The notes under the pieces were generated by a model, which was not told where the DNA came from, did no database searches, and saw nothing but the letters and a program-made list of their open reading frames with translations. Shown here piece after piece: positions 2,030 through 52,847 of a stretch of 64,000 nt of DNA. Position numbers and translations under genes: made by a program. The DNA comes from Patescibacteria group bacterium (GTDB taxonomy: Bacteria; Patescibacteriota; Patescibacteriia; Patescibacteriales; UBA12465). Positions within the stretch are counted from its first letter, which is position 1. The number at the start of each line of letters is the position of its first letter. The DNA lies in the NCBI GenBank assembly GCA_041658665.1, contig JBAZZR010000003.1:4125-68124 (forward strand), written 5' to 3'.

Positions 2030-3235
2030 ATGTTTAGTAGAATAATAAGTTATCAGAATATCGAGGCGGCTTATTTAGAAATAATTGAGCAATTCGCGGC
2101 CGACCGACGTAATTTTAGATATCACGGCCTAGATAATATTTTTTTGCACGATCTCGACCTAAAATCTCAAGCAATAATTAAAATTATTCAAACCGACCTC
2201 CAAAAAATTAAAGAAATTGAACCGGCTCTCGCCGTACAAATTCCTAAAAAAAATAAACCGGAGCAATATCGAGAAATTTTTATTTATAACCTTAAGGAGA
2301 GAATAAAGGCGCAAGCTATTTATCGCGTAATCTTACCAATCTTTGAAAATAATTTTTCTGACCGACTTTTTTCTTATCGTCCCGGGAAACCTCCTTATTT
2401 AGCGGCACAGAGCTTTTGTCGTCGCTACCGTCGGGAATTCTCCAAAGATCAGGCTCTCATAATAGATTTAAAAAACTACTCTGATCGGATAAATCGAACG
2501 CTGATGTTTCAGCAGCTGCAAAAAATTATTAGTGACCAAAAAGTTTTAGCGCTTCTCCGTTTATTTATTTTTAATAAAGTCTATCGCCAAGGAAAATACA
2601 CTGATCCCGCCCAGGGACTAGTGCAGGGCGTCCCTTTAATCGCTCTTCTCGCTAACTTATATTTAACGGACTTAGATTTTAAATATCAAACTAAGTCCGC
2701 TTTTTATGTACGGGTTGGCGATGATTTGGCTTTTTTAGATCCCGCTCTCGATAAACTCCAAAAAATACTAGCGACCCTCGCCAACGATTTAACGGCCCGG
2801 GGACTAGAACTTAACCAACAAAAATTATTTTTAGGCGCGGCTCGCGACCAATATTCTTTTTTAGGCTATAATTTCAAAGCCGGACTTATTAGTTTAGAGC
2901 CGGTATTTATTAAAAGGACGATCGCCGACTGGCAAAGAATTTTGACTTATAAAAACGCGCCGCCTGACGCCAAATTAAATTTACTAAGCCGAATAATGAG
3001 CAAGCCAGAAAATAATTTTAACCGACAATTTCAAAAAATAGTAAAAGACAAGTCCCAAATTAATAATTCGGCGCAAATTAAAAAAATATCGGAAAATTTC
3101 TTTGCCATTTTAACTAAGTTTATTTACAAACATTACTCGCCAAGAAATCGCCGGTTATTAGAAGAGAAATTAAAAAATATAAAAATAATGTCTTTATACA
3201 GTATATATAAAAAATTCCATTATGATCGAAATTAA
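2030..3235 (+). CDS. Free-standing reverse transcriptase (RT palm/fingers plus about 120-aa helical C-terminal region)
   Basis: RT motifs in order: IPKKNKPEQYREI (1-2), FSYRPGKPPYLA (3), LIIDLKNYSDRI (4), GLVQGVPLIALLANLYL (5), YVRVGDDLAF (motif C, VGDD at 2714-2725), GLELNQQK (6), FLGYNF (7). No maturase X, endonuclease, DGR SQ or retron VTG motif seen. Confidence 0.85.
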   Translation: MFSRIISYQNIEAAYLEIIEQFAADRRNFRYHGLDNIFLHDLDLKSQAIIKIIQTDLQKIKEIEPALAVQIPKKNKPEQYREIFIYNLKERIKAQAIYRVILPIFENNFSDRLFSYRPGKPPYLAAQSFCRRYRREFSKDQALIIDLKNYSDRINRTLMFQQLQKIISDQKVLALLRLFIFNKVYRQGKYTDPAQGLVQGVPLIALLANLYLTDLDFKYQTKSAFYVRVGDDLAFLDPALDKLQKILATLANDLTARGLELNQQKLFLGAARDQYSFLGYNFKAGLISLEPVFIKRTIADWQRILTYKNAPPDAKLNLLSRIMSKPENNFNRQFQKIVKDKSQINNSAQIKKISENFFAILTKFIYKHYSPRNRRLLEEKLKNIKIMSLYSIYKKFHYDRN

Positions 3236-4940
3236 GGAACAAGTGCGGCTGTTAAAAAAAATTAGAATCAATCGTCATAAACAAGCGACAACCGCCAACT
3301 CGGTCTTACAGTATAATTATTTACTAATGTTTTTTAAAAAACATCAACTAATTATACTAGGCACTATCCTCCTTTTACTAACCCAAGGGATTATTGAAAC
3401 ATCTCTAGTTTTTATTAGTAAAAACCAACTAACTTTTAGCAGCCCAAACATAACTAGTTCTTTTTTTTGGTGGTTATTTATCACTTTTTTCCTTATTTTT
3501 CTGGTTAATTCCTTTGTCGCCATTAGACAGGAAAAGACCGTAGTCGTTCTTTTTATTAATAGTCTTCGCCGACGAATTTTTAAAAATTATCTTGGTAAAT
3601 CATTAAACGGCATGAAAGCAGAGGCCCAAGCCGCTTTAATCGCTAAAATTTCCTACCACCTACCTCTAGTATCCCTAGGCATATCCAATTCATTATTTGG
3701 CTTTATTCGCTGGCTAATCTATTTAACTTCCGCCGTGGTCGTCGCTTCTTTCGCTGGTTTAAATATCTTAGTTATTTTAATAAGCTTTTTATTATTGTCG
3801 ATTATGATCGCCGTCCCCGCCTACTTTATCGCTCAACGCTATATTTCTCAAGAAGTTACTTTCTACTCTCAAATTATTAAATTAATTGATTTAAGCGCCT
3901 CGGAAAAATATTTTCTCAAAAGTTTTAATTTAGAAACAACCACCCTAAAAAAATTCGATCGCCTAGTAGATTTTGACTCTATTTTTCGAATTCGACGAGA
4001 TTTATGGATGAAAATGGGCTTTAAAATAGTCTTCGCTCTTCTTCTGATTATCTCTGTTTTAATTCATCTTTTTCAAAATAATATTACGGCCACTATTAAT
4101 TTAATAAGTCCGGAATTAAAATTTCTCTACGCCTTTCTTCTAATTTATTTATCGCGGGTCGCGACGGAAGCCCTCCGCATCGGTCTTTACTTTTTTCCTG
4201 GTCAATTAGGGTTATCCCTCACTATTACTCCCCAAGGAAAATATCTTCATCGGGCTAACCGCGTCGATATTAAAAAAGAGATTACTTTCTATAGCCGCAA
4301 AATTAAATTATTTAAAACCGGTCGTTATTATCGAAAATTAAGTTTTGACTTTTTAAGAGGCGGCCGCTATCTATTTTATGGTGCTAATCTTTCGGGCAAA
4401 ACCACCTTGGCTAAATTATTCTGGGGTAGCGAGGCTTACCAGTCTAAAGCACTAAAAATAAAAATAGACGGCCACCGTCTAAATTTTTCCGACTATCAGC
4501 GCTTATTTAATAGAGGCTATTTTTTCCAACCCAATTTTTATTCACAAAAAAGCTTGCTAGAATTAATTCTTGGTTTAGACCGAGAAGCCACTGATTTTTC
4601 AGAAATTGACCGCGCTTTAAAAATTATCGCCGCCTATCCATCGTTAGTAGAACTGGTCTCAACTGATAATAACTTTAGCTTAGCGGCCGATAAAATCTGG
4701 AACAACCCCGCAGCAGCCTTTGCCCTACATTCTTTACACTGTCTGGTCAACCGCCCCTCCCTCATTATTATTGATAATCTCTGGCTAGACCTAAATTATC
4801 CCGCTATCAATAAAATACTAAAAATCATCAGCCAAGAACTGCCCGAAGTAATTTTAATTATTTTCGCTAGCCAGGATATTAATCATTTAACTTATAACAA
4901 CCGCTATGACTTGGATAAAAATTTTGAGACAAAAGACTAA
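3222..4940 (+). CDS. ABC exporter-like membrane protein (6 predicted TM helices plus nucleotide-binding domain with degenerate catalytic motifs)
   Basis: Start overlaps the RT stop by 14 nt. Six hydrophobic helices lie in the N-terminal about 330 aa. Walker A GANLSGKT (4380-4403) is intact. The signature is replaced by FSLAA. Walker B reads LIIIDN (Asp 4773-4775, then Asn instead of the catalytic Glu). No H-loop His is seen in IIFASQD. Confidence 0.7.
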   Translation: MIEIKEQVRLLKKIRINRHKQATTANSVLQYNYLLMFFKKHQLIILGTILLLLTQGIIETSLVFISKNQLTFSSPNITSSFFWWLFITFFLIFLVNSFVAIRQEKTVVVLFINSLRRRIFKNYLGKSLNGMKAEAQAALIAKISYHLPLVSLGISNSLFGFIRWLIYLTSAVVVASFAGLNILVILISFLLLSIMIAVPAYFIAQRYISQEVTFYSQIIKLIDLSASEKYFLKSFNLETTTLKKFDRLVDFDSIFRIRRDLWMKMGFKIVFALLLIISVLIHLFQNNITATINLISPELKFLYAFLLIYLSRVATEALRIGLYFFPGQLGLSLTITPQGKYLHRANRVDIKKEITFYSRKIKLFKTGRYYRKLSFDFLRGGRYLFYGANLSGKTTLAKLFWGSEAYQSKALKIKIDGHRLNFSDYQRLFNRGYFFQPNFYSQKSLLELILGLDREATDFSEIDRALKIIAAYPSLVELVSTDNNFSLAADKIWNNPAAAFALHSLHCLVNRPSLIIIDNLWLDLNYPAINKILKIISQELPEVILIIFASQDINHLTYNNRYDLDKNFETKD

Positions 4941-6120
4941 AAAGGGGGATGGCCGTAATTGGCTAGCCCTACTTATTTTTTTCGGACTACCCCTAGTGTT
5001 ACTCATCGGCGGTTTATCTTTAGGCGTAAAATTCTTGCCTTTCTACCAAAAAGCAAAAAATATAATTTTAGAACCGGCCCAAATAATAGAAATTAGCGAA
5101 CCATTTTCTGGTAATTTATATTTTAATGATGAACTCGGCATAGATAACTTTTCCAGCCTAATTATTGCTAACCTCGATACCGCTAAATATAAAATTGAGC
5201 TAGCTATGTATTCCATGGATAGCGCGACTATTGCCGACGCTCTCTATCGCGCCGCCGATCGAGGCGTACTAATTAACTTAATTTTTAGTGATAAACACCA
5301 AGCAATAATTAATAAATTATTTAAAAATCCTCATCAAAATATTACAATTAATTTCCGTAGTTCTGATTTAGGATATATGCATCACAAATTTCTCTTAATT
5401 GATCGCCAGACAACCGCCCCTAAACTATTTTTTAGTTCTTATAATTTCACGAATATCCAAGGGAAATATGATCCTAGTTTTATTTTAGAGACTAGCCGGC
5501 CGGAGTTAGTGGATATTTTTGGACAAGAGTTTGGACGTTTAGCCGCAGGCCAACACGGCGAAGCAAAAAAAGCGACGACTAGTAATCCCTTCGCTGCTCT
5601 AATAAAGTACCCCGAGGGTTTTCTAGAAATTTGGTTCTCGCCGGGAACGGCTCAAAAAAACGTTAAACGCCGTATGTTAAATTTAATTAAAGACTCAAAA
5701 AGTAATATCAAAGTCATGATCTGGACTTTGACCGATAAAGAGATCGCCGCGGCCTTAGTCGCCGCCGCCCAAAAATTACCAGTTAATATTATTACTGATG
5801 ATTCTAATTGGTCGGTGGACAATTCTGTTTTTCCGATTTTAGCGGCGCAGAAAGAAAGACAAAATTTAAATAATCTAGAAATAATTACCGACAGTAAAAA
5901 TAGTGAAGGAATAAATAAACTATATACCGGCAATAGTCTTAATTCGTTCTTGCATCATCATCTGATGATTATTGATGACCAAACCGTGATTTTTGGCACT
6001 AATAATTGGAGCTACAACGGTTTTTCAAAAAACAATGAATCAATCATGATTTCTAATATAGCAAGCCTCACTAGCGCTTTTGAACAATCATACTCAACTA
6101 ACTATAATAAAAATAAATAA
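4906..6120 (+). CDS. Membrane-anchored phospholipase D (HKD) superfamily protein
   Basis: Start overlaps the upstream stop by 35 nt. A basic N-terminus is followed by one TM helix (WLALLIFFGLPLVLLIGGLSLGV). First motif is HHKFLLID (HxKxxxxD, 5380-5403) followed by SSYNFT. Second motif is HHHLMIID (HxHxxxxD, 5953-5976) followed by GTNNWS. Confidence 0.8.
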   Translation: MTWIKILRQKTKKGDGRNWLALLIFFGLPLVLLIGGLSLGVKFLPFYQKAKNIILEPAQIIEISEPFSGNLYFNDELGIDNFSSLIIANLDTAKYKIELAMYSMDSATIADALYRAADRGVLINLIFSDKHQAIINKLFKNPHQNITINFRSSDLGYMHHKFLLIDRQTTAPKLFFSSYNFTNIQGKYDPSFILETSRPELVDIFGQEFGRLAAGQHGEAKKATTSNPFAALIKYPEGFLEIWFSPGTAQKNVKRRMLNLIKDSKSNIKVMIWTLTDKEIAAALVAAAQKLPVNIITDDSNWSVDNSVFPILAAQKERQNLNNLEIITDSKNSEGINKLYTGNSLNSFLHHHLMIIDDQTVIFGTNNWSYNGFSKNNESIMISNIASLTSAFEQSYSTNYNKNK

Positions 6121-6270: not shown

Positions 6271-7401
6271 ATGCCAAAATACCAATATATAATCGAAAAT
6301 AACGATACCCGTCCGGATCAGACTCTCATAATAACGCTTAAGCCCAAGACCAATAAAGATATCTTTAATTTTCAGCCCGGTCAATATGCGATGTTATCTT
6401 TTTATGACAAGGCCGGTAAATTTTTCATCAATCATCCTTTTTCTATCGCCAGTTCACCGACGCAAAAAAATTATTTAAAATTTGGCATAAAAATAATCGG
6501 CCAATTTACACAAAATTTAAAGAATCTCGCTCCTGGGAATAAGGTCGAAGTTTTAGGTCCTTTCGGTAATTTTATTTTTGATGAAACTAAATATCCCGTT
6601 GCCGTATTTATAGCAGGCGGGGTAGGAATAACGCCATTTATGAGCGCTATTAATTACGCGACTGATCGAAACTTGTCCAACCAAATATTCTTATTATATA
6701 GTAACCGGACTATTGCCGGCACTCTTTTTTATGAGGAGATTAAAAAATTAGCCGCTCAAAATCCTCATTTTCATCCTCAACTAAAAATTACTCAAGAACC
6801 AATTAATAATCTTAGTTATTGTGAAAACGGCTATATCACTAAAGAAACAATCACGAAAAATATTCAAGAGCTAGATCATAAAGATTTTTTCCTTTGCGGA
6901 CCGGGACAGTTTATGAAAACGATGGAAAAAAATTTAATTGAACTGGGTGTCCCTAACCACAAAATTCATCAAGAAGCTTTTAATGCTACTCCGAACCTAT
7001 CCCTACGAGAAAATGCTAAAAATATCTCCCTAGTTTACGGCCTGACAGTTGTCTTATTTATTTTTTTTCTAAACTTTATTCAACCCGCTAAAATTAGTTC
7101 GGCAAACGAGTCGGCTAAAATTTTCGAGCCAGCTCCAATTAATCTGATTAACAATGCCGTAAATAATCGGCGCAATGACATTATCAGCTCTAAAAAGTTA
7201 TTGCTTAGCACTATTAGCTCTCTCCTGACTAAAAATATAAATACCAATACTAAACCTACCGCTGGATCAGCGCCAATAACTCAGCCCGCTAAAACTAATC
7301 CCGCGCCCATTATTCAACCCGTTAAAATAGCGACACCAATTATTAAGACCCCGGCTCAAAATCGCGCTCCCGTCGTAACGCCAAGAACTAGGGTCTCTTA
7401 A
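6271..7401 (+). CDS. NOX/ferric-reductase-type FAD/NAD(P)H-binding dehydrogenase domain protein with C-terminal TM helix and P/T/A-rich tail
   Basis: FAD motif HPFSIASSP (from 6433), NAD(P)-binding GGVGITPF and FLCGPG motif. A hydrophobic helix (LVYGLTVVLFIFFLNFI) is followed by a proline/threonine/alanine-rich tail. Confidence 0.7.
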   Translation: MPKYQYIIENNDTRPDQTLIITLKPKTNKDIFNFQPGQYAMLSFYDKAGKFFINHPFSIASSPTQKNYLKFGIKIIGQFTQNLKNLAPGNKVEVLGPFGNFIFDETKYPVAVFIAGGVGITPFMSAINYATDRNLSNQIFLLYSNRTIAGTLFYEEIKKLAAQNPHFHPQLKITQEPINNLSYCENGYITKETITKNIQELDHKDFFLCGPGQFMKTMEKNLIELGVPNHKIHQEAFNATPNLSLRENAKNISLVYGLTVVLFIFFLNFIQPAKISSANESAKIFEPAPINLINNAVNNRRNDIISSKKLLLSTISSLLTKNINTNTKPTAGSAPITQPAKTNPAPIIQPVKIATPIIKTPAQNRAPVVTPRTRVS

Positions 7402-7414
7402 TTATTAAAATATT

Positions 7415-7801
7415 ATGAAAAAAATTAAAAAAATATCAACTTCATTATTACTAATTTTTTTATTCGCGCTGACGAGTCAGCCGATATTAGCTGAAGATGA
7501 TGACTATGACGATTACGAAGAAAATAATTACAGAGAAAATAATGACGATCGGCCAGAAGTAATTTCCGCCGTTGAGGAGACCTCGGCCCCGGTAACACCA
7601 CGAGTATCGACGATTGATGCCCCCGCCGCGACTGGCTTTCTGCCCACAGTAAACATTACTAATAGTTTAATTGATTCCGATCAAGACGGAATCATTGATA
7701 TTTTAGATACTCATCCCGGTGAGGACGACTTTGCCTTTAGGATTCAAGACGCTAATAAAAATGGCCTGATTGATGATTTAGAATATTTAATGAACAAATA
7801 A
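7415..7801 (+). CDS. Small secreted acidic protein with a pair of EF-hand/dockerin-like Ca-binding loops
   Basis: Signal peptide MKKIKKISTSLLLIFLFALTSQPILA, an acidic D/E/Y run, then two 12-residue loops (DSDQDGIIDILD and DANKNGLIDDLE) matching DxDxDGxIxxxD/E. Confidence 0.55.
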   Translation: MKKIKKISTSLLLIFLFALTSQPILAEDDDYDDYEENNYRENNDDRPEVISAVEETSAPVTPRVSTIDAPAATGFLPTVNITNSLIDSDQDGIIDILDTHPGEDDFAFRIQDANKNGLIDDLEYLMNK

Positions 7802-7807
7802 TCTAAT

Positions 7808-8749
7808 ATGCAGGCCTATAAAAAAATCCAGGCTCTGGGCACCGAAGTAGAATTTTATTTACAATCTGATTTAAAAATTGACTTAGAGCCAGATTTTTTA
7901 GAACTCAGCCTCTTAATTGATAAATTTGATCAACTATTTAACCGTTTTTCGGCGAGTAGCGAACTAAGTCGATTAAATAAAGCTACAAATAATTTCCAGG
8001 CTAACCCCGAATTAACTAAAATTCTACTAGTAGCCAAAGACTTTTATAATTTAACGGGCGGAATCTTTGACCCTACTATTTTACGAACTTTAGAAGAGCA
8101 GGGATATGACCGAAGCTTTGATTCTTTAGATTTAGGTGGTTCTAACGAACTAATAGAACGCCGACCAAAAACGATTGATTTTAAACAAATAATAATTAAC
8201 GCCGAGAACAATTTTATTACCAAGCCCCCCGAGCTTAAAATAGATTTAGGGGGAATCGGTAAAGGGTATATCGTTGATAAACTCGTTAAACATCTAAAGG
8301 ACAAAGGATATAAAAATTTTTGGATTTCGGCTGGCGGAGACATGTATCTCAGTGGTTTAACGGCCGACGGACAAACTTATCAAATCGGCGTTCAAAACCC
8401 CTTAAAAATCGCTAGCGATTTATTTAATATCGCAATGACGGCTCAAGAGCTGGCGGTCGCCACTTCAGGAATCGCGAAAAGACAATGGTCGGATAAACAC
8501 GGCCACCGCTTTAATCATTTAATTGATCCGCGAACCAGATCTTCGGTAAATAATGGTCTGCTCGCCGCGACGGTTATTTCTGATCAAGTAGTGAAGGCGG
8601 ATATTTATGCTAAAACAATCTTAATTTTAGGAGAAAAAGAGGGAATTAGTTTCATTGACCAGCAAGAAAATAGCGAAGCTCTCATTATCGATCGGAATTT
8701 AAAAGTTAGTTTGTCAAAAAATATGAATAAATATTTAACAAAAATCTAA
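7808..8749 (+). CDS. apbE: FAD:protein FMN transferase (ApbE family)
   Basis: ApbE-like motifs FDPT, DLGGIGKGY, ISAGGD, VATSGI and HLIDPRT. About 310 aa, typical of the family. Confidence 0.8.
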   Translation: MQAYKKIQALGTEVEFYLQSDLKIDLEPDFLELSLLIDKFDQLFNRFSASSELSRLNKATNNFQANPELTKILLVAKDFYNLTGGIFDPTILRTLEEQGYDRSFDSLDLGGSNELIERRPKTIDFKQIIINAENNFITKPPELKIDLGGIGKGYIVDKLVKHLKDKGYKNFWISAGGDMYLSGLTADGQTYQIGVQNPLKIASDLFNIAMTAQELAVATSGIAKRQWSDKHGHRFNHLIDPRTRSSVNNGLLAATVISDQVVKADIYAKTILILGEKEGISFIDQQENSEALIIDRNLKVSLSKNMNKYLTKI

Positions 8750-9588
8750 TGTTTAAAACTAATAAATTATTGATCGTGACGATCACCTTAATTTTCTTCA
8801 GTAATTTTTTCTTACCGGCGACTCTACTAGCGGAAAATGTCATTTATGCTACCTCGGCTAAAGACAGTGATTACGACGGCTTAACTGATCAGGGTGAAAT
8901 TCAAATTTATAAAACAAATCCACAAAATCCCGATTCTGATAGTGACTCCTATTTAGACGGCGCCGAAATTTTAGCCGGCACTAATCCTTTAGATCCAAAC
9001 AGCCCCCAAATAGTCTCCACCACCGATCTTAATTTAAGTAAGACTAGCGTTCCGGCGACTAGTCTTTGGCCTTGGTTCGTGGCGCGTGCTTCTGGTATAG
9101 TTAGCTACCTTCTCCTTTTTTTACTAATAGTTTCTGGTAGCGGCATAAAAACTTCATCATTATTTCGTTTAGTGAGTCCAACGACGGCTTGGTTAAATCA
9201 CCGCTATTTAGGAATCGCTTTGACATTTTCGACGTTGATTCATTTGGGCTCACTTTTGACTGATAATTTTTTAAAATTTACTGTTATTGATATCCTAGTC
9301 CCCTTCATTTCTAGTTTTAAACCTTTATATTTATCGCTAGGCATCATCGGTTTTTATCTGTTTTTAGCCATAATTATTTTCTCGATCTTTTATATGAATA
9401 AACTCCCTAAAATCTGGCGCGTGCTTCATTATTTAACCTATCCCGCCTTTATTATCCTCTTCATTCATGGCTATTTTATCGGTACCGACACAACGACAAA
9501 TTTAATGCAGTTAATCTATCTGACCACGGGGATTATAGTCGCCTTACAATTTTCTTATCGTCTATATTTTTCCTATAAACAACACTAA
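8749..9588 (+). CDS. Ferric-reductase-like (NOX/MsrQ superfamily) di-heme transmembrane domain protein with N-terminal extracellular thrombospondin-type-3-like Ca-binding repeats
   Basis: The ATG shares one nt with the apbE stop (taATG). Signal/anchor, then DSDYDGLTDQGE and NPDSDSDSYLDGAEILAGTNPLDPNS. TM helices carry His pairs spaced 14 residues (His codons at 9199 and 9241) and 13 residues (9427 and 9466). Confidence 0.7.
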   Translation: MFKTNKLLIVTITLIFFSNFFLPATLLAENVIYATSAKDSDYDGLTDQGEIQIYKTNPQNPDSDSDSYLDGAEILAGTNPLDPNSPQIVSTTDLNLSKTSVPATSLWPWFVARASGIVSYLLLFLLIVSGSGIKTSSLFRLVSPTTAWLNHRYLGIALTFSTLIHLGSLLTDNFLKFTVIDILVPFISSFKPLYLSLGIIGFYLFLAIIIFSIFYMNKLPKIWRVLHYLTYPAFIILFIHGYFIGTDTTTNLMQLIYLTTGIIVALQFSYRLYFSYKQH

Positions 9589-9614: not shown

Positions 9615-10832
9615 ATGAATAAAAAACTGATAATATTATTAACCGTTTTTATCGATGTGTTAGGAATCGGAATAATTATTCCTGTTTTACCTTTTTATGT
9701 TGAGTCTTTTGGGGCTTCGGCCTTTACAGTAACTTTATTATTTACCGTTTTTTCTTTTTTTGCTTTTTTCAGCGCTCCTTTTTTAGGAGCCTTGTCCGAC
9801 AAAATTGGTCGCCGCCCTGTTCTTATTATTAGTATTTTCAGCACCGCCTTAGGTTGGTTAATTTTTGCCGCCGCTCCCTCCATTATATGGCTCTTTATTG
9901 GGCGTATTGTTGACGGCGCCGCCGCCGGTAATTTTCCGATTGCCCAGAGCTATTTAATCGATATTGCTAAAGATGAAAAAGAAAAAACTAGTAATCTCGG
10001 ACTAATTGGCGCGATTTTCGGTGTCGGTCTTATTATTGGGCCGGCTCTGGGCGGTTTCTTAAGCTCCCTATTTTTAAGCCTACCATTTTGGATAGTCGGC
10101 GGACTCTCCCTTTTTAACGGCCTATTAGCTATTCTCAATTTACCCGAGACTAAAATTAATAAAAACAAAAATCAAACCCTAGAATTTAACCCATTCAAAC
10201 CTCTAATCAAGGCCTTAAACAATAAAGAATTACGCTCCGACTTTATCGCCTGGTTTTTAATGGGGTTCGCTTTGGCTAGCCAACAATCAGTTTTTTCTTT
10301 ATATTTGAGTGACAAATTCTTTTTAAGTTCTGTTATCGTCGGCCTCTTTATGACCGGTAGCGGCATTATCCTGATTTTCAATCAGGCTTTTGCTCTGAAG
10401 CAAATTTGGTTAAAATATTTTTCTGAAAAGGCCCTGGCGGTGGGTTTAATGCCAGTGATTGCTTTAGGATTTTTTCTAATGGGCTTACCATATATCCAAA
10501 TTTTTATTTTAGGTGTTCTATTTATTAGTTTAGCTCAATCTATTTTACGAGCAGTTATGACAAGTAGAGTAGCCGCCAAGGCGGGGGAGGGAAATCATGG
10601 AGCAATACTGGGCGTCATGAATTCGGTAATGTCGCTAGCTATGATTATCGGCCCCATCGCCGCTGGCTGGCTTTACGGCTGGGAAGAAAATTATCCCTTT
10701 TGGTTAAGCGCGCTGGCTAGCTTTATGGCTTTTTTAATATTAATTCGTAGCTATCGTCATCAGACGGAGAAAAACTTTGATTTAACTGATGAAGAACTAA
10801 TATTAGGAGAACAAAAAATTGAATTATCCTAA
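9615..10832 (+). CDS. MFS transporter (drug:H+ antiporter / TetA-like)
   Basis: About 12 hydrophobic helices and MFS motif A (GALSDKIGRRPVL) between TM2 and TM3. Confidence 0.8.
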   Translation: MNKKLIILLTVFIDVLGIGIIIPVLPFYVESFGASAFTVTLLFTVFSFFAFFSAPFLGALSDKIGRRPVLIISIFSTALGWLIFAAAPSIIWLFIGRIVDGAAAGNFPIAQSYLIDIAKDEKEKTSNLGLIGAIFGVGLIIGPALGGFLSSLFLSLPFWIVGGLSLFNGLLAILNLPETKINKNKNQTLEFNPFKPLIKALNNKELRSDFIAWFLMGFALASQQSVFSLYLSDKFFLSSVIVGLFMTGSGIILIFNQAFALKQIWLKYFSEKALAVGLMPVIALGFFLMGLPYIQIFILGVLFISLAQSILRAVMTSRVAAKAGEGNHGAILGVMNSVMSLAMIIGPIAAGWLYGWEENYPFWLSALASFMAFLILIRSYRHQTEKNFDLTDEELILGEQKIELS

Positions 10833-50375: not shown

Positions 50376-52847
50376 TTAATGCCCGGAACGACGGCTAATA
50401 TCGGCCTCGACTAAACGAACATTCTGACCATATTTCAAACGACTCAAAGCTCTGATTTGATCGGCAATACCAGCTTGTTTGAGCCCAAGTATCGGCCAAG
50501 TGGTCTTTAAAGAGAAAGGCCTAGTCGCGCTATTATCCACTAATAATTTAAGATAAGCCGTCCCTTTGTCGATATTTATTAAATCATACTCATTAAAAAC
50601 CGGAGAAAATTCTTTCACTAAAAATTCAGCGTCCTCCGTGCCAATTTTAAAACTAATCATGGTCCCCACGTTACCAAATACCGCGTCTTTAATTTCCGTA
50701 TTATTATTTTTACTGAGCTGTCCGATATATTGATGAGCAATAATTAAATTCAAAGCATATTTTCGGGCTTCCGATAAAATCTGGCAAATAGAATTAGTAG
50801 TAAAATTTTGAAATTCATCAATATATAAATAAAAATCTTTTCTCGCCTCGCTCGGCATATCCGTCCGCGATAAGGCGGCCATTAAAATCTTGCCCACCAG
50901 AATCATACCCAGAAGATAGGCGTTCATTTCTCCGACTAAGCCTTTAGGCAAATCAATTAATAAAATTTTCTGCTTATCCATTATCTCCCTTAAATTAAAA
51001 GCACTTTTCTGTTGACCAATAATGGGACGCATCATGTCATTAGAAATAAACGACGTAAGTTTCGAAGTGATGTAGGGGACGATATTAGCTAAAGCGGCTT
51101 CCCCGCCGGCCTTTTCCGCTTCTTTGCGCCAAAAGTCAACTACCGTTTGATTCTGACAGCGACTAAGTTTCAAGCGTCTAAATTCTTCATCGGCTAATAC
51201 TTTAGGAATTTCCATTAAAGTCGAACCACTAGCTGGGTCATCCATGACTAGAAGCATGGCGTTTCTCATATACTGTTCAAACATTGGTCCACCAGTAGCC
51301 TTTAAATCATATAATTTATCAAAAATGCCAATCATCTCATTAATCACAAAACTTTTTTGCTCTGGATACTTCTCATCATATTCTAATAAATTAAGGGCTA
51401 GAGGGCGCTCCAAATCGCCGGGCGAAAAAATTATAACGTCCTCCGCGCGCTCCGGCGGAATACGATCTAAAATATCAGTAATGAGATCGCCGTGCGGGTC
51501 AAGAACACAAACCCCTTCACCGTTTTGAATATCCTGAATAGCCATATTCGCCAACAAAACAGATTTGCCGGTACCAGACTTACCAATTATATAAGTATGG
51601 CGACGTCGATCAACTCGTTTCATTCTAATCTCCCGCACGACCCCTCGATAAATATTTTCACCCAAGCTTATCCCTTCGCTAGGCACAGAGGCCGGCGCAG
51701 GCGCAATTTTCGCCGTTAGCCAATCAATATTAGGCGTTTCCATGTCTCTTAAGGGGAAATGGAAAACACTGGCGAGTTCCTCGCTATTAAATAAGAAGGC
51801 GATATTTTCACGAAAATAACGGTAGATGAAATCTTTAATGATTCTCTCGGGTTTATTTTTATTCAACCGCGTAAACACATTACCATAACTAAAATTATTA
51901 TATTCAGTAAATACGCTAGAAATATTTTCCAAATAAATATTAGCCTGTTCTTTAGTTTTAGCGCAGGCGATCAAGCGGATATTAACATCCAAACCCGCTT
52001 TCATATTTTTTTCCTCAATTGACTTTAGCATCTCTTCTTCAACGGGCGATAATTTTTTAACAACTTGATGGCTGGTATCCCGCTCTTTTTCTTTTTTGGT
52101 CTTAGGGAACAAATCGTTGAGTAACATGCTTACCCCCCCTAATAAACTAGTAGTCCGTAAACCCTCGGCCACCGAATTTTTCTGTTGAATTTTAGCGACT
52201 ACTCGTCTGACCCGGCCGTGCCAAGCGCCGTTAGCGCTACGAACGACATACTGAATAGCGACACTTTCATCCTTCTCTAATTTTGACAAAGTATTAATCA
52301 AAGAATTCAGAGGATCCACTTCCATTTTTTGGTAAGTTTTAATCGGAAAAACTAAACTCTTGCTGGTTTTTAAAATCCCCGCTGCTACTTGTCCTTGTAA
52401 ACTGAAAGAATTATAATCCTCGACTTCTTCAATCACCGCTTCAGAATAATGCGCGTGAATTTGTTGCTCTAAATAACGCGCCCCGGCCGCCGGAGTCACC
52501 ACATAAAAAGAGATGCGGTTATGATGAGCGACAATTTCAAAAGAAAACTGATCGCTACGACCGAAAAACCAAAAATTTAAACCTCTTTGCGCCCTTAAGC
52601 CGCCAATCGCCGCAAAAACTGTCTCTCCCTTAGCAATTTCTTCTTTCAAACGCTCATTACTTTCTTCTCTTTTTTCGTCGCCGACTCTCTCTTTCGGTAG
52701 ACGCACTAAAAATACTTGATGAGGAAAATAGCGCCGGCCAGAAAATAAGGAACGAATTAACAAAAAAATAGCTAAACAGAAAAATACTAGAAAAATGCTA
52801 GCTAATAAATAAACAACTAAACTATTTAGGTCTATAAAAAATTCCAT
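50376..52847 (-). CDS. Membrane-anchored VirD4/TraD/TrwB-like (FtsK/HerA superfamily) P-loop ATPase with large uncharacterised N-terminal domain
   Basis: N-terminal TM (VVYLLASIFLVFFCLAIFLLI), about 380 aa unassigned, then Walker A IIGKSGTGKS, VLDPHGDL, Walker B LYIDEFQNF and IIAHQY, as in coupling-protein-type ATPases. Confidence 0.6.
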   Translation of the reverse strand: MEFFIDLNSLVVYLLASIFLVFFCLAIFLLIRSLFSGRRYFPHQVFLVRLPKERVGDEKREESNERLKEEIAKGETVFAAIGGLRAQRGLNFWFFGRSDQFSFEIVAHHNRISFYVVTPAAGARYLEQQIHAHYSEAVIEEVEDYNSFSLQGQVAAGILKTSKSLVFPIKTYQKMEVDPLNSLINTLSKLEKDESVAIQYVVRSANGAWHGRVRRVVAKIQQKNSVAEGLRTTSLLGGVSMLLNDLFPKTKKEKERDTSHQVVKKLSPVEEEMLKSIEEKNMKAGLDVNIRLIACAKTKEQANIYLENISSVFTEYNNFSYGNVFTRLNKNKPERIIKDFIYRYFRENIAFLFNSEELASVFHFPLRDMETPNIDWLTAKIAPAPASVPSEGISLGENIYRGVVREIRMKRVDRRRHTYIIGKSGTGKSVLLANMAIQDIQNGEGVCVLDPHGDLITDILDRIPPERAEDVIIFSPGDLERPLALNLLEYDEKYPEQKSFVINEMIGIFDKLYDLKATGGPMFEQYMRNAMLLVMDDPASGSTLMEIPKVLADEEFRRLKLSRCQNQTVVDFWRKEAEKAGGEAALANIVPYITSKLTSFISNDMMRPIIGQQKSAFNLREIMDKQKILLIDLPKGLVGEMNAYLLGMILVGKILMAALSRTDMPSEARKDFYLYIDEFQNFTTNSICQILSEARKYALNLIIAHQYIGQLSKNNNTEIKDAVFGNVGTMISFKIGTEDAEFLVKEFSPVFNEYDLINIDKGTAYLKLLVDNSATRPFSLKTTWPILGLKQAGIADQIRALSRLKYGQNVRLVEADISRRSGH

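Follow-up and report, generated by a model that had tools for sequence, protein, structure and literature searches.

A predicted split ferric-reductase-type electron-transfer operon of Patescibacteria, with an ApbE gene and a candidate flavinylation motif at the end of a membrane-anchored tail

Patescibacteria, also called candidate phyla radiation (CPR) bacteria, are believed to possess hardly any membrane redox chemistry. The described systems that lie closest to the operon reported here are the MsrQ-like systems of Méheust, Huang, Rivera-Lugo, Banfield, and Light (eLife 2021; PMC8238504), in which a di-heme membrane protein of Pfam family PF01794 is encoded beside apbE, a PF00175 NAD-binding module supplies electrons from the cytosol, and the proposed flow of electrons runs from NAD(P)H to the outside. 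These systems are mostly actinobacterial, their NAD-binding domain usually lies at the C-terminus of the MsrQ-like protein, their flavinylated substrate is an FMN_bind domain, and their definition asks for a signal peptide or lipobox on the flavinylation component (PMC8238504). The NADPH oxidase (NOX) of Streptococcus pneumoniae, SpNOX (8qq7 and 8qt6; dehydrogenase domain, 8qq1/8qq5), is a single polypeptide of six transmembrane (TM) helices followed by a dehydrogenase and needs neither ApbE nor a partner. In Escherichia coli, as far as the work cited in PMC8238504 is reported there (Juillan-Binard et al. 2017), a separate flavin reductase, Fre, and the ferric-reductase-type cytochrome b MsrQ form a NOX-like chain; Fre is soluble and unlinked, MsrQ serves MsrP, and neither ApbE nor a TM anchor for the reductase nor a tail motif is part of that chain. 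We describe here a four-gene operon from a Patescibacteria group bacterium, found in a 64,000-nucleotide stretch of DNA that we call the window (GenBank assembly GCA_041658665.1, contig JBAZZR010000003.1, positions 4,125 to 68,124 of the forward strand), which encodes a dehydrogenase (DH) with a TM helix and a long tail, a small acidic secreted protein, an ApbE-family flavin transferase, and a ferric-reductase-domain (FRD) protein. On balance, we lean toward reading this operon as a membrane electron-transfer module of the NOX/MsrQ kind, made of separate polypeptides, in which ApbE would put flavin mononucleotide (FMN) on the tail of the DH protein.

The four genes are co-oriented and closely packed, with 13 nt between the DH and small-protein genes, 6 nt between the small-protein and ApbE genes, and a one-base overlap between the ApbE and FRD genes, where the A at position 8749 is common to the TAA stop codon of the former and the ATG start codon of the latter (TAATG; TCTAATGTTT). 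This layout (Table 1) reproduces exactly the coordinates given in an earlier note on the same DNA, which had seen in the operon a "split NOX." One genome per species was scanned with FRD alignment A2, which gave 80 loci, and the contexts of distant FRD homologues were viewed alongside. ApbE is encoded immediately upstream of FRD in almost every one of the 80 scanned loci, and this adjacency spans the CPR (L001-L021), many Chloroflexota, and, among the Bacillota, Rummeliibacillus, Cohnella, and another metagenome-assembled genome (MAG); three Saccharibacteria loci, found via their DH, agree with it. A DH gene is not nearby in several of the CPR loci or in any of the non-CPR loci. A single-TM protein with a low-complexity tail is encoded in nearly all of these loci, and in the window and most CPR loci it forms the C-terminal third of the DH protein. 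The core conserved over CPR, Chloroflexota, and Bacillota is made up of ApbE, FRD, an acidic exported protein, and a single-TM tail protein, with DH as an optional module fused either to the tail protein, as in the window, or to FRD.

Clusters of the CPR type, with 43-57% identity to the window proteins, also occur under the labels "uncultured Gammaproteobacteria" (L014) and "candidate division KSB1" (P0016, P0097, and P0223), and these labels are probably errors of MAG binning or labelling. An IS66-family transposase is encoded ~2 kb upstream of the cluster at a Moranbacteria-like locus without an adjacent DH (L001, 1595-3064). The "ferric reductase-like" gene of the cultivated Saccharibacterium Southlakia epibionticum encodes a 229-aa DH beside NrdG and does not belong to this system; no ApbE is present in the Tn-seq tables for that organism.

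The DH tail is the most conserved and most interesting element, and its sequence offers a concrete candidate answer to the question of what ApbE modifies. The DH protein does carry a TM helix of its own, as the earlier note had claimed: a single hydrophobic helix marked by a conserved juxtamembrane motif (P.L.[LF]R.N....LVYG), with G257 invariant in 12 paired sequences and a predicted local distance difference test (pLDDT) score of 71-83. A TM helix recurs at residues ~250-260 in 112 of 114 full-length DH homologues, and we propose that it is an analogue of NOX TM1. The tail that follows it is 106 aa long; Pro makes up 12% of it, and it is better termed I/P/A/N/T/S-rich than "Pro-rich." Homologue tails (n = 112) span 48-149 aa, with a median of 93.5 aa, and consist to 39.5% of Thr, Ser, and Pro. 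In the window, the tail runs from a predicted helix, with the consensus INxxVxxRRNxIIxSKxxLL (alignment A4), through a disordered linker to the terminal motif; the pLDDT values for these parts come from a DH+FRD fusion model built on a block alignment that is partly mis-registered in the tails.

The terminal motif is strongly conserved. P371, T373, and S376 are invariant, and R372 is nearly so, in 12 close homologues, and a T..S terminus is found in 83/114 DH homologues, other classes carrying SGVT or SGIT instead. At the level of loci, a TM protein that ends in T..S(G.{1,5})? is encoded just upstream of ApbE in 74 of 82, against a background of 9/4349 (0.2%) among the other open reading frames (ORFs) of the same loci. 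Seven of the eight loci that lack this ending have the gene order ApbE-acidic-tail-FRD, with tails that end in SGGS, TRGS, TGSSR, TQAS, or SRAS; the eighth, L084, has no clear tail. The common denominator of the endings collected in Table 1 is [S/T]-x-x-S, either at the C-terminus itself or followed by G and at most five residues. The best reading of this pattern is that the tail would carry the flavin, with T373/S376 of PRTRVS as the candidate FMN site. One Saccharimonadales subgroup of the DH homologues (within P0137-P0187) has tails with the ending T[ST][QA]SG[VI]TTCx or the ending C[HQ]TTPSGRCI, in which there are a near-canonical S-G-V-T and, near the C-terminus, one or two Cys.

ApbE canonically modifies D-x-x-[S/T]-G-A-[S/T], whose last residue receives the FMN (PMC12052999). 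Both hydroxyl positions of the tail motif are spaced as in canonical [S/T]GA[S/T], and the SGGS, SGVT, and SGIT endings of some lineages approach the canonical core. A true canonical site is missing from the vicinity of ApbE, just as the earlier note had said: a search for [ST]G[AGSV][ST] in the four operon proteins returned none, no D-x-x-[S/T]-G-A-[S/T] substrate is encoded near ApbE, and neither the window cluster nor any related locus examined holds an FMN_bind domain or a canonical motif. The sole D..[ST]G[AS][ST] match in the window (D..SGST) sits in a type IV secretion coupling ATPase and is almost certainly a chance match. Two stretches of FRD were considered as flavinylation sites and set aside: the cytoplasmic loop SGSGIKTS, which is not conserved in alignment A1, and, in the IGTD loop that follows H240, a near-invariant Thr that is extracytoplasmic, has no preceding G-A, and is retained as a minor possibility.

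By its profile match, the transferase is an ordinary ApbE. The third gene product matches Pfam ApbE (PF02424) at 203.8 bits, its best PDB match is Vibrio cholerae ApbE 6nxi (4e-27), and its His236 (NHLIDP) aligns with the catalytic His257 of the V. cholerae enzyme, a position at which the aligned 6nxj sequence has Gly; the earlier assignment of this gene to ApbE is thereby borne out. It has no signal peptide or lipobox, its first beta-strand beginning at residue 9, and an N-terminal hydrophobic segment is present in 0/119 of its closest homologues. Cytosolic ApbEs are known, for example, the one that serves the fumarate reductase of Klebsiella (PMC12052999).

These features of ApbE and of the tail also bear on a different reading, to which we give a clearly smaller share of our belief: the operon would still be a split NOX/MsrQ-like conduit, with [S/T]-x-x-S serving as a signal for sorting, processing, glycosylation, or partner binding (for instance, a basic peptide that binds the acidic partner protein), and with ApbE acting otherwise, either on a protein encoded elsewhere or as a FAD pyrophosphatase or FMN supplier for DH. 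The FAD pyrophosphatase, or FMN-handling, role is one that Treponema Ftp reportedly has. Such a signal would sit well with an ApbE that is cytoplasmic and a tail that is predicted to lie outside, and with the missing G-A core; a compositional or recognition motif is likewise hinted at by the TPRVS found inside the small secreted protein (7595-7609), which resembles the C-terminal TPRTRVS of DH. Against this reading stands the synteny, with ApbE translationally coupled to FRD and adjoining the tail protein in ~80 loci from three phyla, some of them without DH. The clusters hold no other conserved Ser/Thr motif and no FMN_bind domain, the variants SGGS, SGVT, and TRGS approach the canonical motif, and FMN transfer is the only established ApbE activity in bacterial clusters of this sort (PMC12052999, PMC8238504).

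The FRD protein begins with a predicted signal peptide, and an AxA-type cleavage site is found in 12/12 of the homologues inspected, the N-terminal hydrophobic segment being missing altogether in several orthologues. Beyond it lie two Asp-rich repeats that match Pfam TSP3_bac (31.3 bits) and the B domain of biofilm-associated protein. The membrane domain then matches Ferric_reduct (PF01794) at 40.0 bits against a cut-off of 28, with residues 116-237 covering profile positions 2-120 of 121, a significant match that places the protein in the FRD superfamily (NOX/FRE/STEAP/MsrQ). Its TM helices occupy residues 107-135, 144-170, 192-214, 220-244, and 251-278. Of its five His residues (151, 165, 227, 240, and 279), four form two pairs, H151 (codon 9199)/H165 (9241) and H227 (9427)/H240 (9466), and the codons and the 14/13 spacing recorded in the earlier note are correct. 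All four are invariant in 27 CPR homologues and again in a 14-sequence, TM-only alignment of CPR, Chloroflexota, and Bacillota, and they show the arrangement of the superfamily's heme ligands, with pairs 13-14 residues apart on two non-adjacent helices.

A single-sequence search of the PDB with FRD matched the TSP3 repeats only, and the TM-only profile from three phyla was needed to reach the membrane domain. That profile aligns with SpNOX (8qq7/8qt6; E = 3.7e-4), with both His pairs falling on the His pairs of SpNOX, and the claim that they occupy heme-ligand positions is upheld by this alignment. The alignment with NOX2 is weaker (E ~0.75) and puts the His residues on H101/H115 and H209-210/H222, with an ambiguity of one residue. 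An AlphaFold model of FRD (pLDDT 86) has five long helices in addition to a signal-peptide helix and an Asp-rich region outside the cytoplasm, and its best folds in the PDB are those of DUOX1, the NOX5 TM domain, SpNOX, STEAP2, NOX2, and cytochrome b561, with modest E values (0.05-0.6) and probabilities of ~1. The first FRD helix aligns before NOX TM3, and the mature protein therefore corresponds to NOX TM2-TM6. FRD does not have a six-helix core on one polypeptide, the mature protein having five predicted TM helices; the sixth may be supplied by the DH/tail protein. From its invariant His pairs, we infer that FRD binds two b-type hemes.

The DH domain has the motifs HPFSIASSP (residue 55), GGVGITPF (116), and FLCGPG (207), all as first noted. 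Above their Pfam cut-offs are FAD_binding_8 (38.8 bits; cut-off, 22), FAD_binding_6 (33.9 bits), and NAD_binding_1 (51.5 bits), and FAD_binding_8 together with the HPF[ST], GGxGxTPF, and CGP motifs identifies a DH of the NOX/FRE type. NAD_binding_6, the ferric-reductase-type NAD domain, scores 15.3 bits on DH, under its cut-off of 22.2; the combination with NAD_binding_1 in its place is the same as that in bacterial MsrQ-like fusions (PF00175; PMC8238504). The best PDB match is the SpNOX DH domain (8qq1/8qq5; ~4e-18, 27-28% identity), with NqrF and flavohemoglobin as close runners-up. In Foldseek, the modeled domain (pLDDT ~97) matches the whole FNR family, with identity highest to the SpNOX DH at a TM-score of 0.86 on the target; from the DH+FRD fusion model, the DH domain alone was aligned, the domain order being permuted. 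The earlier note had allowed that DH might instead group with cytoplasmic FNR enzymes of, for example, the PyrK kind; with SpNOX DH as its closest relative and FAD_binding_8 above cut-off, its affinity is to NOX/FRE. DH is not fused to the C-terminus of FRD in the window, where the two are separate genes. At a Wolfebacteria locus of the CPR (L021), FRD and DH do form one polypeptide of 422 aa, in the NOX order. As far as sequence can tell, then, the "split NOX" of the earlier note is supported by the invariant His residues that fall on the SpNOX/NOX2 ligands, by the SpNOX-like DH, and by the L021 fusion.

A rival reading makes the system a strict NADPH oxidase like SpNOX, whose outer heme would turn O2 into superoxide or H2O2, serving O2 scavenging or host-cell attack, with ApbE, the tail, and the acidic protein as accessories. 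SpNOX is indeed the closest solved relative of both DH and the TM domain, and the fused FRD-DH form exists in CPR (L021). We nevertheless regard this as improbable: enzymes of the SpNOX type need no ApbE and no extra subunits, the conserved core persists without DH in many loci, and the conserved exported partners, acidic or His-rich, are more indicative of a bound cation than of O2. Less probable still is a role for FRD as an MsrQ orthologue supplying an MsrP-type repair reductase in the periplasm or outside the cell, with DH acting like E. coli Fre. Members of the family are named "methionine sulfoxide reductase heme-binding subunit" or "YedYZ heme-binding subunit" in some sources, and the Fre+MsrQ pair, to the extent that PMC8238504 recounts it, is a two-component precedent. 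Yet a gene for MsrP or another molybdoenzyme, the partner that MsrPQ systems would call for, is absent from the window cluster and from the loci inspected, and the FRD membrane domain has no NCBIfam match at E <= 0.1.

The small protein encoded between DH and ApbE was described in the earlier note as a secreted Ca-binding protein. Its secretion is borne out by a signal peptide, and Ca binding can be suggested from its DxDxDG loops; in Pfam, no family lies above cut-off, EF-hand being sub-threshold (E = 0.037). Homologues occur in 11 of the 21 CPR loci and share a module that combines a signal peptide and a poly-Asp/Glu run with two DxDxDG loops linked through HPGEDD. In two FRD homologues of ~404 aa (P0055 and P0056), the small acidic protein is naturally fused to the N-terminus of FRD, and it is therefore functionally tied to FRD. 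The counterpart in Chloroflexota is a TM protein that ends in runs such as GGESEGAEGGD or DHEEHDDDHGEHEDDD, and that of Rummeliibacillus carries a His/Asp/Glu-rich stretch on a Cu_amine_oxidN1 domain. The His/Asp/Glu runs of exported cluster proteins in Chloroflexota and Bacillota can be extreme (DHEEHDDDHGEHEDDD, EEHEEEHEEEHEE, and, on a Cu_amine_oxidN1 domain, HDEKEHDHDEKEHDDDEEE), and to judge from their composition they look like metal-binding sequences. Directly downstream of FRD in 6/21 CPR loci, and absent from the window, is a gene for a secreted protein of ~160 aa with the motif FFG..NKT...L.IENECP.EPLEIY, a second Cys, and no Pfam family; it may be a further partner or a terminal component.

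These parts can be assembled into a working scheme. Cytoplasmic DH would pass electrons from NAD(P)H to FAD; the TM helix of DH, oriented N-in and C-out like NOX TM1, would pack on the five-helix FRD to make a six-helix, NOX-like bundle; and electrons would then cross the membrane from an inner heme (H151/H227) to an outer heme (H165/H240), both of the b type. On the outside, FMN attached by ApbE to the terminal Ser/Thr of the tail would relay electrons from the outer heme to an acceptor, so that the tail would stand in for the FMN_bind domain found in classical MsrQ-like systems and serve as a tethered flavin placed between heme and acceptor. The acidic and His-rich partners, together with the TSP3 repeats, suggest that the acceptor may be a bound metal cation such as Fe(III), in line with the connection to iron assimilation that has been proposed for MsrQ-like clusters (PMC8238504). 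The scheme in its most specific form, in which this signal-peptide-less ApbE clade FMN-ylates the C-terminal Ser/Thr of a disordered tail, probably in the cytoplasm, and the tethered flavin takes electrons from the outer heme onward to an acceptor that the acidic partner holds, is one that we put forward only tentatively.

Several observations count against the module as we have read it. ApbE lacks a signal peptide while the tail is predicted to be extracytoplasmic, which would leave enzyme and substrate on opposite sides of the membrane unless the tail is modified before export; one may speculate that it is, the motif being on the last residues to be translocated. The motif lacks both the G-A core and the upstream Asp of D-x-x-[S/T]-G-A-[S/T]. 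The PDB matches of FRD, by sequence and by fold, are weak in absolute terms (E of 3.7e-4 to 0.5). Finally, the synthesis of heme or flavins is not known from CPR bacteria.

Table 1. Features of the redox operon and of related loci, with the tail endings by lineage
Feature	Position	Strand	Remarks
DH ORF	6271-7401	+	376 aa
DH domain, FNR/NOX-type FAD + NAD(P)H module	6271..7005	+	residues 1-245; Pfam, PDB, model
Single TM helix of DH protein	7024..7080	+	residues 252-270, ISLVYGLTVVLFIFFLNFI; hydropathy
Helix after TM helix	7138..7233	+	residues 290-321; fusion model pLDDT ~80, predicted outside membrane
Disordered low-complexity tail linker	7234..7380	+	residues 322-370; pLDDT 36-45
C-terminal motif P-R-T-R-V-S-COOH	7381..7398	+	residues 371-376; candidate ApbE site [S/T]-x-x-S
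Small secreted acidic protein, ORF	7415-7801	+	128 aa; signal peptide 7415-7492
Acidic run of small protein	7493-7549	+	EDDDYDDYEENNYRENNDD
DxDxDG-type Ca-loop motifs of small protein	7673-7699, 7748-7783	+	DSDQDGIID, DANKNGLIDDLE
ApbE ORF, ApbE-family FAD:protein FMN transferase	7808-8749	+	313 aa; Pfam; catalytic His236 at 8513-8515
FRD protein ORF	8749-9588	+	279 aa
FRD signal peptide	8749..8832	+	residues 1-28, cleavage LLA/EN
Two bacterial TSP3-type Asp-rich repeats	8863..8967	+	DSDYDGLTDQGE, DSDSDSYLDGAE; FRD extracytoplasmic N-terminus
Ferric-reductase-type membrane domain	9067..9582	+	five TM helices
Type IV secretion coupling protein (TrwB/TraG/VirD4-like) holding D..SGST	50376-52847	-	823 aa
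Exported proteins with His/Asp/Glu runs	L024 2679-3317; L042 2384-3076; L033 3038-3445; L025 4135-4587; L027 3187-3825		
Secreted ~160-aa protein	L008 5848-6351; L009 5394-5867; L010 4258-4728; L015 5526-6023; L016 5528-6034; L021 6260-6781		
Tail ending, window			PRTRVS-COOH
Tail endings, other CPR			PRTTVS, PRTRTS, PRTSVS, PRTILS, QTRMS, STKVS, KTKTS
Tail ending, Saccharibacteria			YQAPVTSVS
Tail endings, a Saccharimonadales group			TSQSGVTTCx, TSASGVTTCx, C[HQ]TTPSGRCI
Tail endings, Limnocylindria-type Chloroflexota			VVTRQSGAKP, KTTQSGKVVP
Tail endings, Bacillota			QTRRS, QTRTRRS, QTRTGRS
Tail endings, Anaerolineae/Caldilineae			SGGS, TRGS, TGSSR, TQAS, SRAS

The operon is followed in the window by genes for a major facilitator superfamily (MFS) transporter and then UvrB, and preceded by genes for a PLD-like protein and a degenerate ABC-like protein. 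The MFS transporter gene (9615-10832) starts 26 nt past the FRD stop codon, is retained in the close relative L007 and not in distant loci, and could share a transcript with the redox operon in this lineage. The two upstream genes (3222-4940 and 4906-6120) overlap by 35 nt; the first encodes a membrane protein of 572 aa whose ABC_tran match is sub-threshold (23.2 bits versus 25), the second a PLD-like protein of two domains that is secreted or anchored, and the adjacency of neither is conserved in other loci. A scan of the operon region for promoters and terminators found a number of sites that was not above that of shuffled sequence. A terminator-like hairpin (8-bp stem and T-run) at 7672-7694, inside the small-protein gene over the DSDQDG codons, is probably due to chance, because the region's count of such sites does not exceed the shuffled expectation.

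Many CPR lineages, Chloroflexota, and a few Bacillota thus keep a compact, predicted heme conduit from NAD(P)H to the outside that is tied to ApbE. If it works as we propose, it would be the first case of flavin-based extracytosolic electron transfer that is widespread in CPR, and Chloroflexota and some Bacillota would share it. If the tail motif is the target of ApbE, the substrates of this enzyme would include a new class, in which a short peptide at the terminus carries a non-canonical [S/T]-x-x-S and has no flavin-binding fold. Known substrates would then extend beyond folded domains to a minimal peptide at the end of a protein, and the motif would provide a natural flavin tag of very short length. 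According to the 2021 survey, there are still orphan apbE genes whose substrates are not known (PMC8238504), and the tail motif could account for a part of them. What the system does, be it the reduction and uptake of iron, the handling of oxygen, or interaction with a host cell, matters for the question of how ultra-small symbionts acquire metals or dispose of reductant.

The operon is of a kind already known from the ApbE-associated MsrQ-like systems, SpNOX, and the two-component Fre+MsrQ chain, and it is a variant of these rather than something unprecedented. By the terms of the 2021 survey, it has a PF01794 gene within five genes of apbE (the two are adjacent, with their one-base overlap), and it has neither a signal peptide or lipidation site on ApbE nor any FMN_bind, DUF2271, or DUF3570 domain in the cluster. 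The survey dropped ApbE and FMN_bind genes that lacked a signal peptide, and it found flavinylation to be strikingly under-represented in CPR (PMC8238504); because signal-peptide-less ApbE genes were removed, clusters of the present type went undescribed there. In our search of the literature, which was incomplete in coverage and does not prove absence, no paper connected ApbE to CPR or reported a substrate in the form of a C-terminal tail.

Two further systems share single features with the operon. In the FMN_red proteins of Huang et al. (mSystems 2024; PMC11334425), the flavinylation site likewise lies on a disordered C-terminal extension and not on a folded FMN_bind domain, whereas the motifs there are canonical-like and the extensions themselves fold back to meet a flavin-binding domain (PMC11334425), and tails of the window type have a non-canonical motif at or near the extreme C-terminus, are anchored in the membrane, and have no evident flavin-binding domain. 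In the monoderm Listeria, an ApbE-type enzyme, FmnB, makes a surface flavoprotein, PplA, that passes electrons to outside acceptors; by the account of Light et al. (2018) that is given in PMC8238504, the membrane step there consists of Ndh2, quinone, and EetAB and not of an FRD cytochrome, FmnB is an exported lipoprotein, and PplA has FMN_bind domains.

SpNOX shares with the window proteins the FAD/NAD(P)H motifs and the aligned His pairs, and the window arrangement differs in being both permuted and split, with one protein carrying DH and then a single TM helix, and another carrying five. Compared with the MsrQ-like systems, the operon lacks both an FMN_bind domain and an ApbE signal peptide, and it has a separate DH with a TM helix and tail of its own, a conserved TM-and-tail protein that ends in [S/T]-x-x-S, and an acidic exported protein. 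What sets this operon apart among its relatives is thus its split and permuted architecture, a TM-and-tail subunit with a candidate flavinylation site, a clade of ApbE without signal peptides, an acidic partner, and a wide occurrence in CPR.

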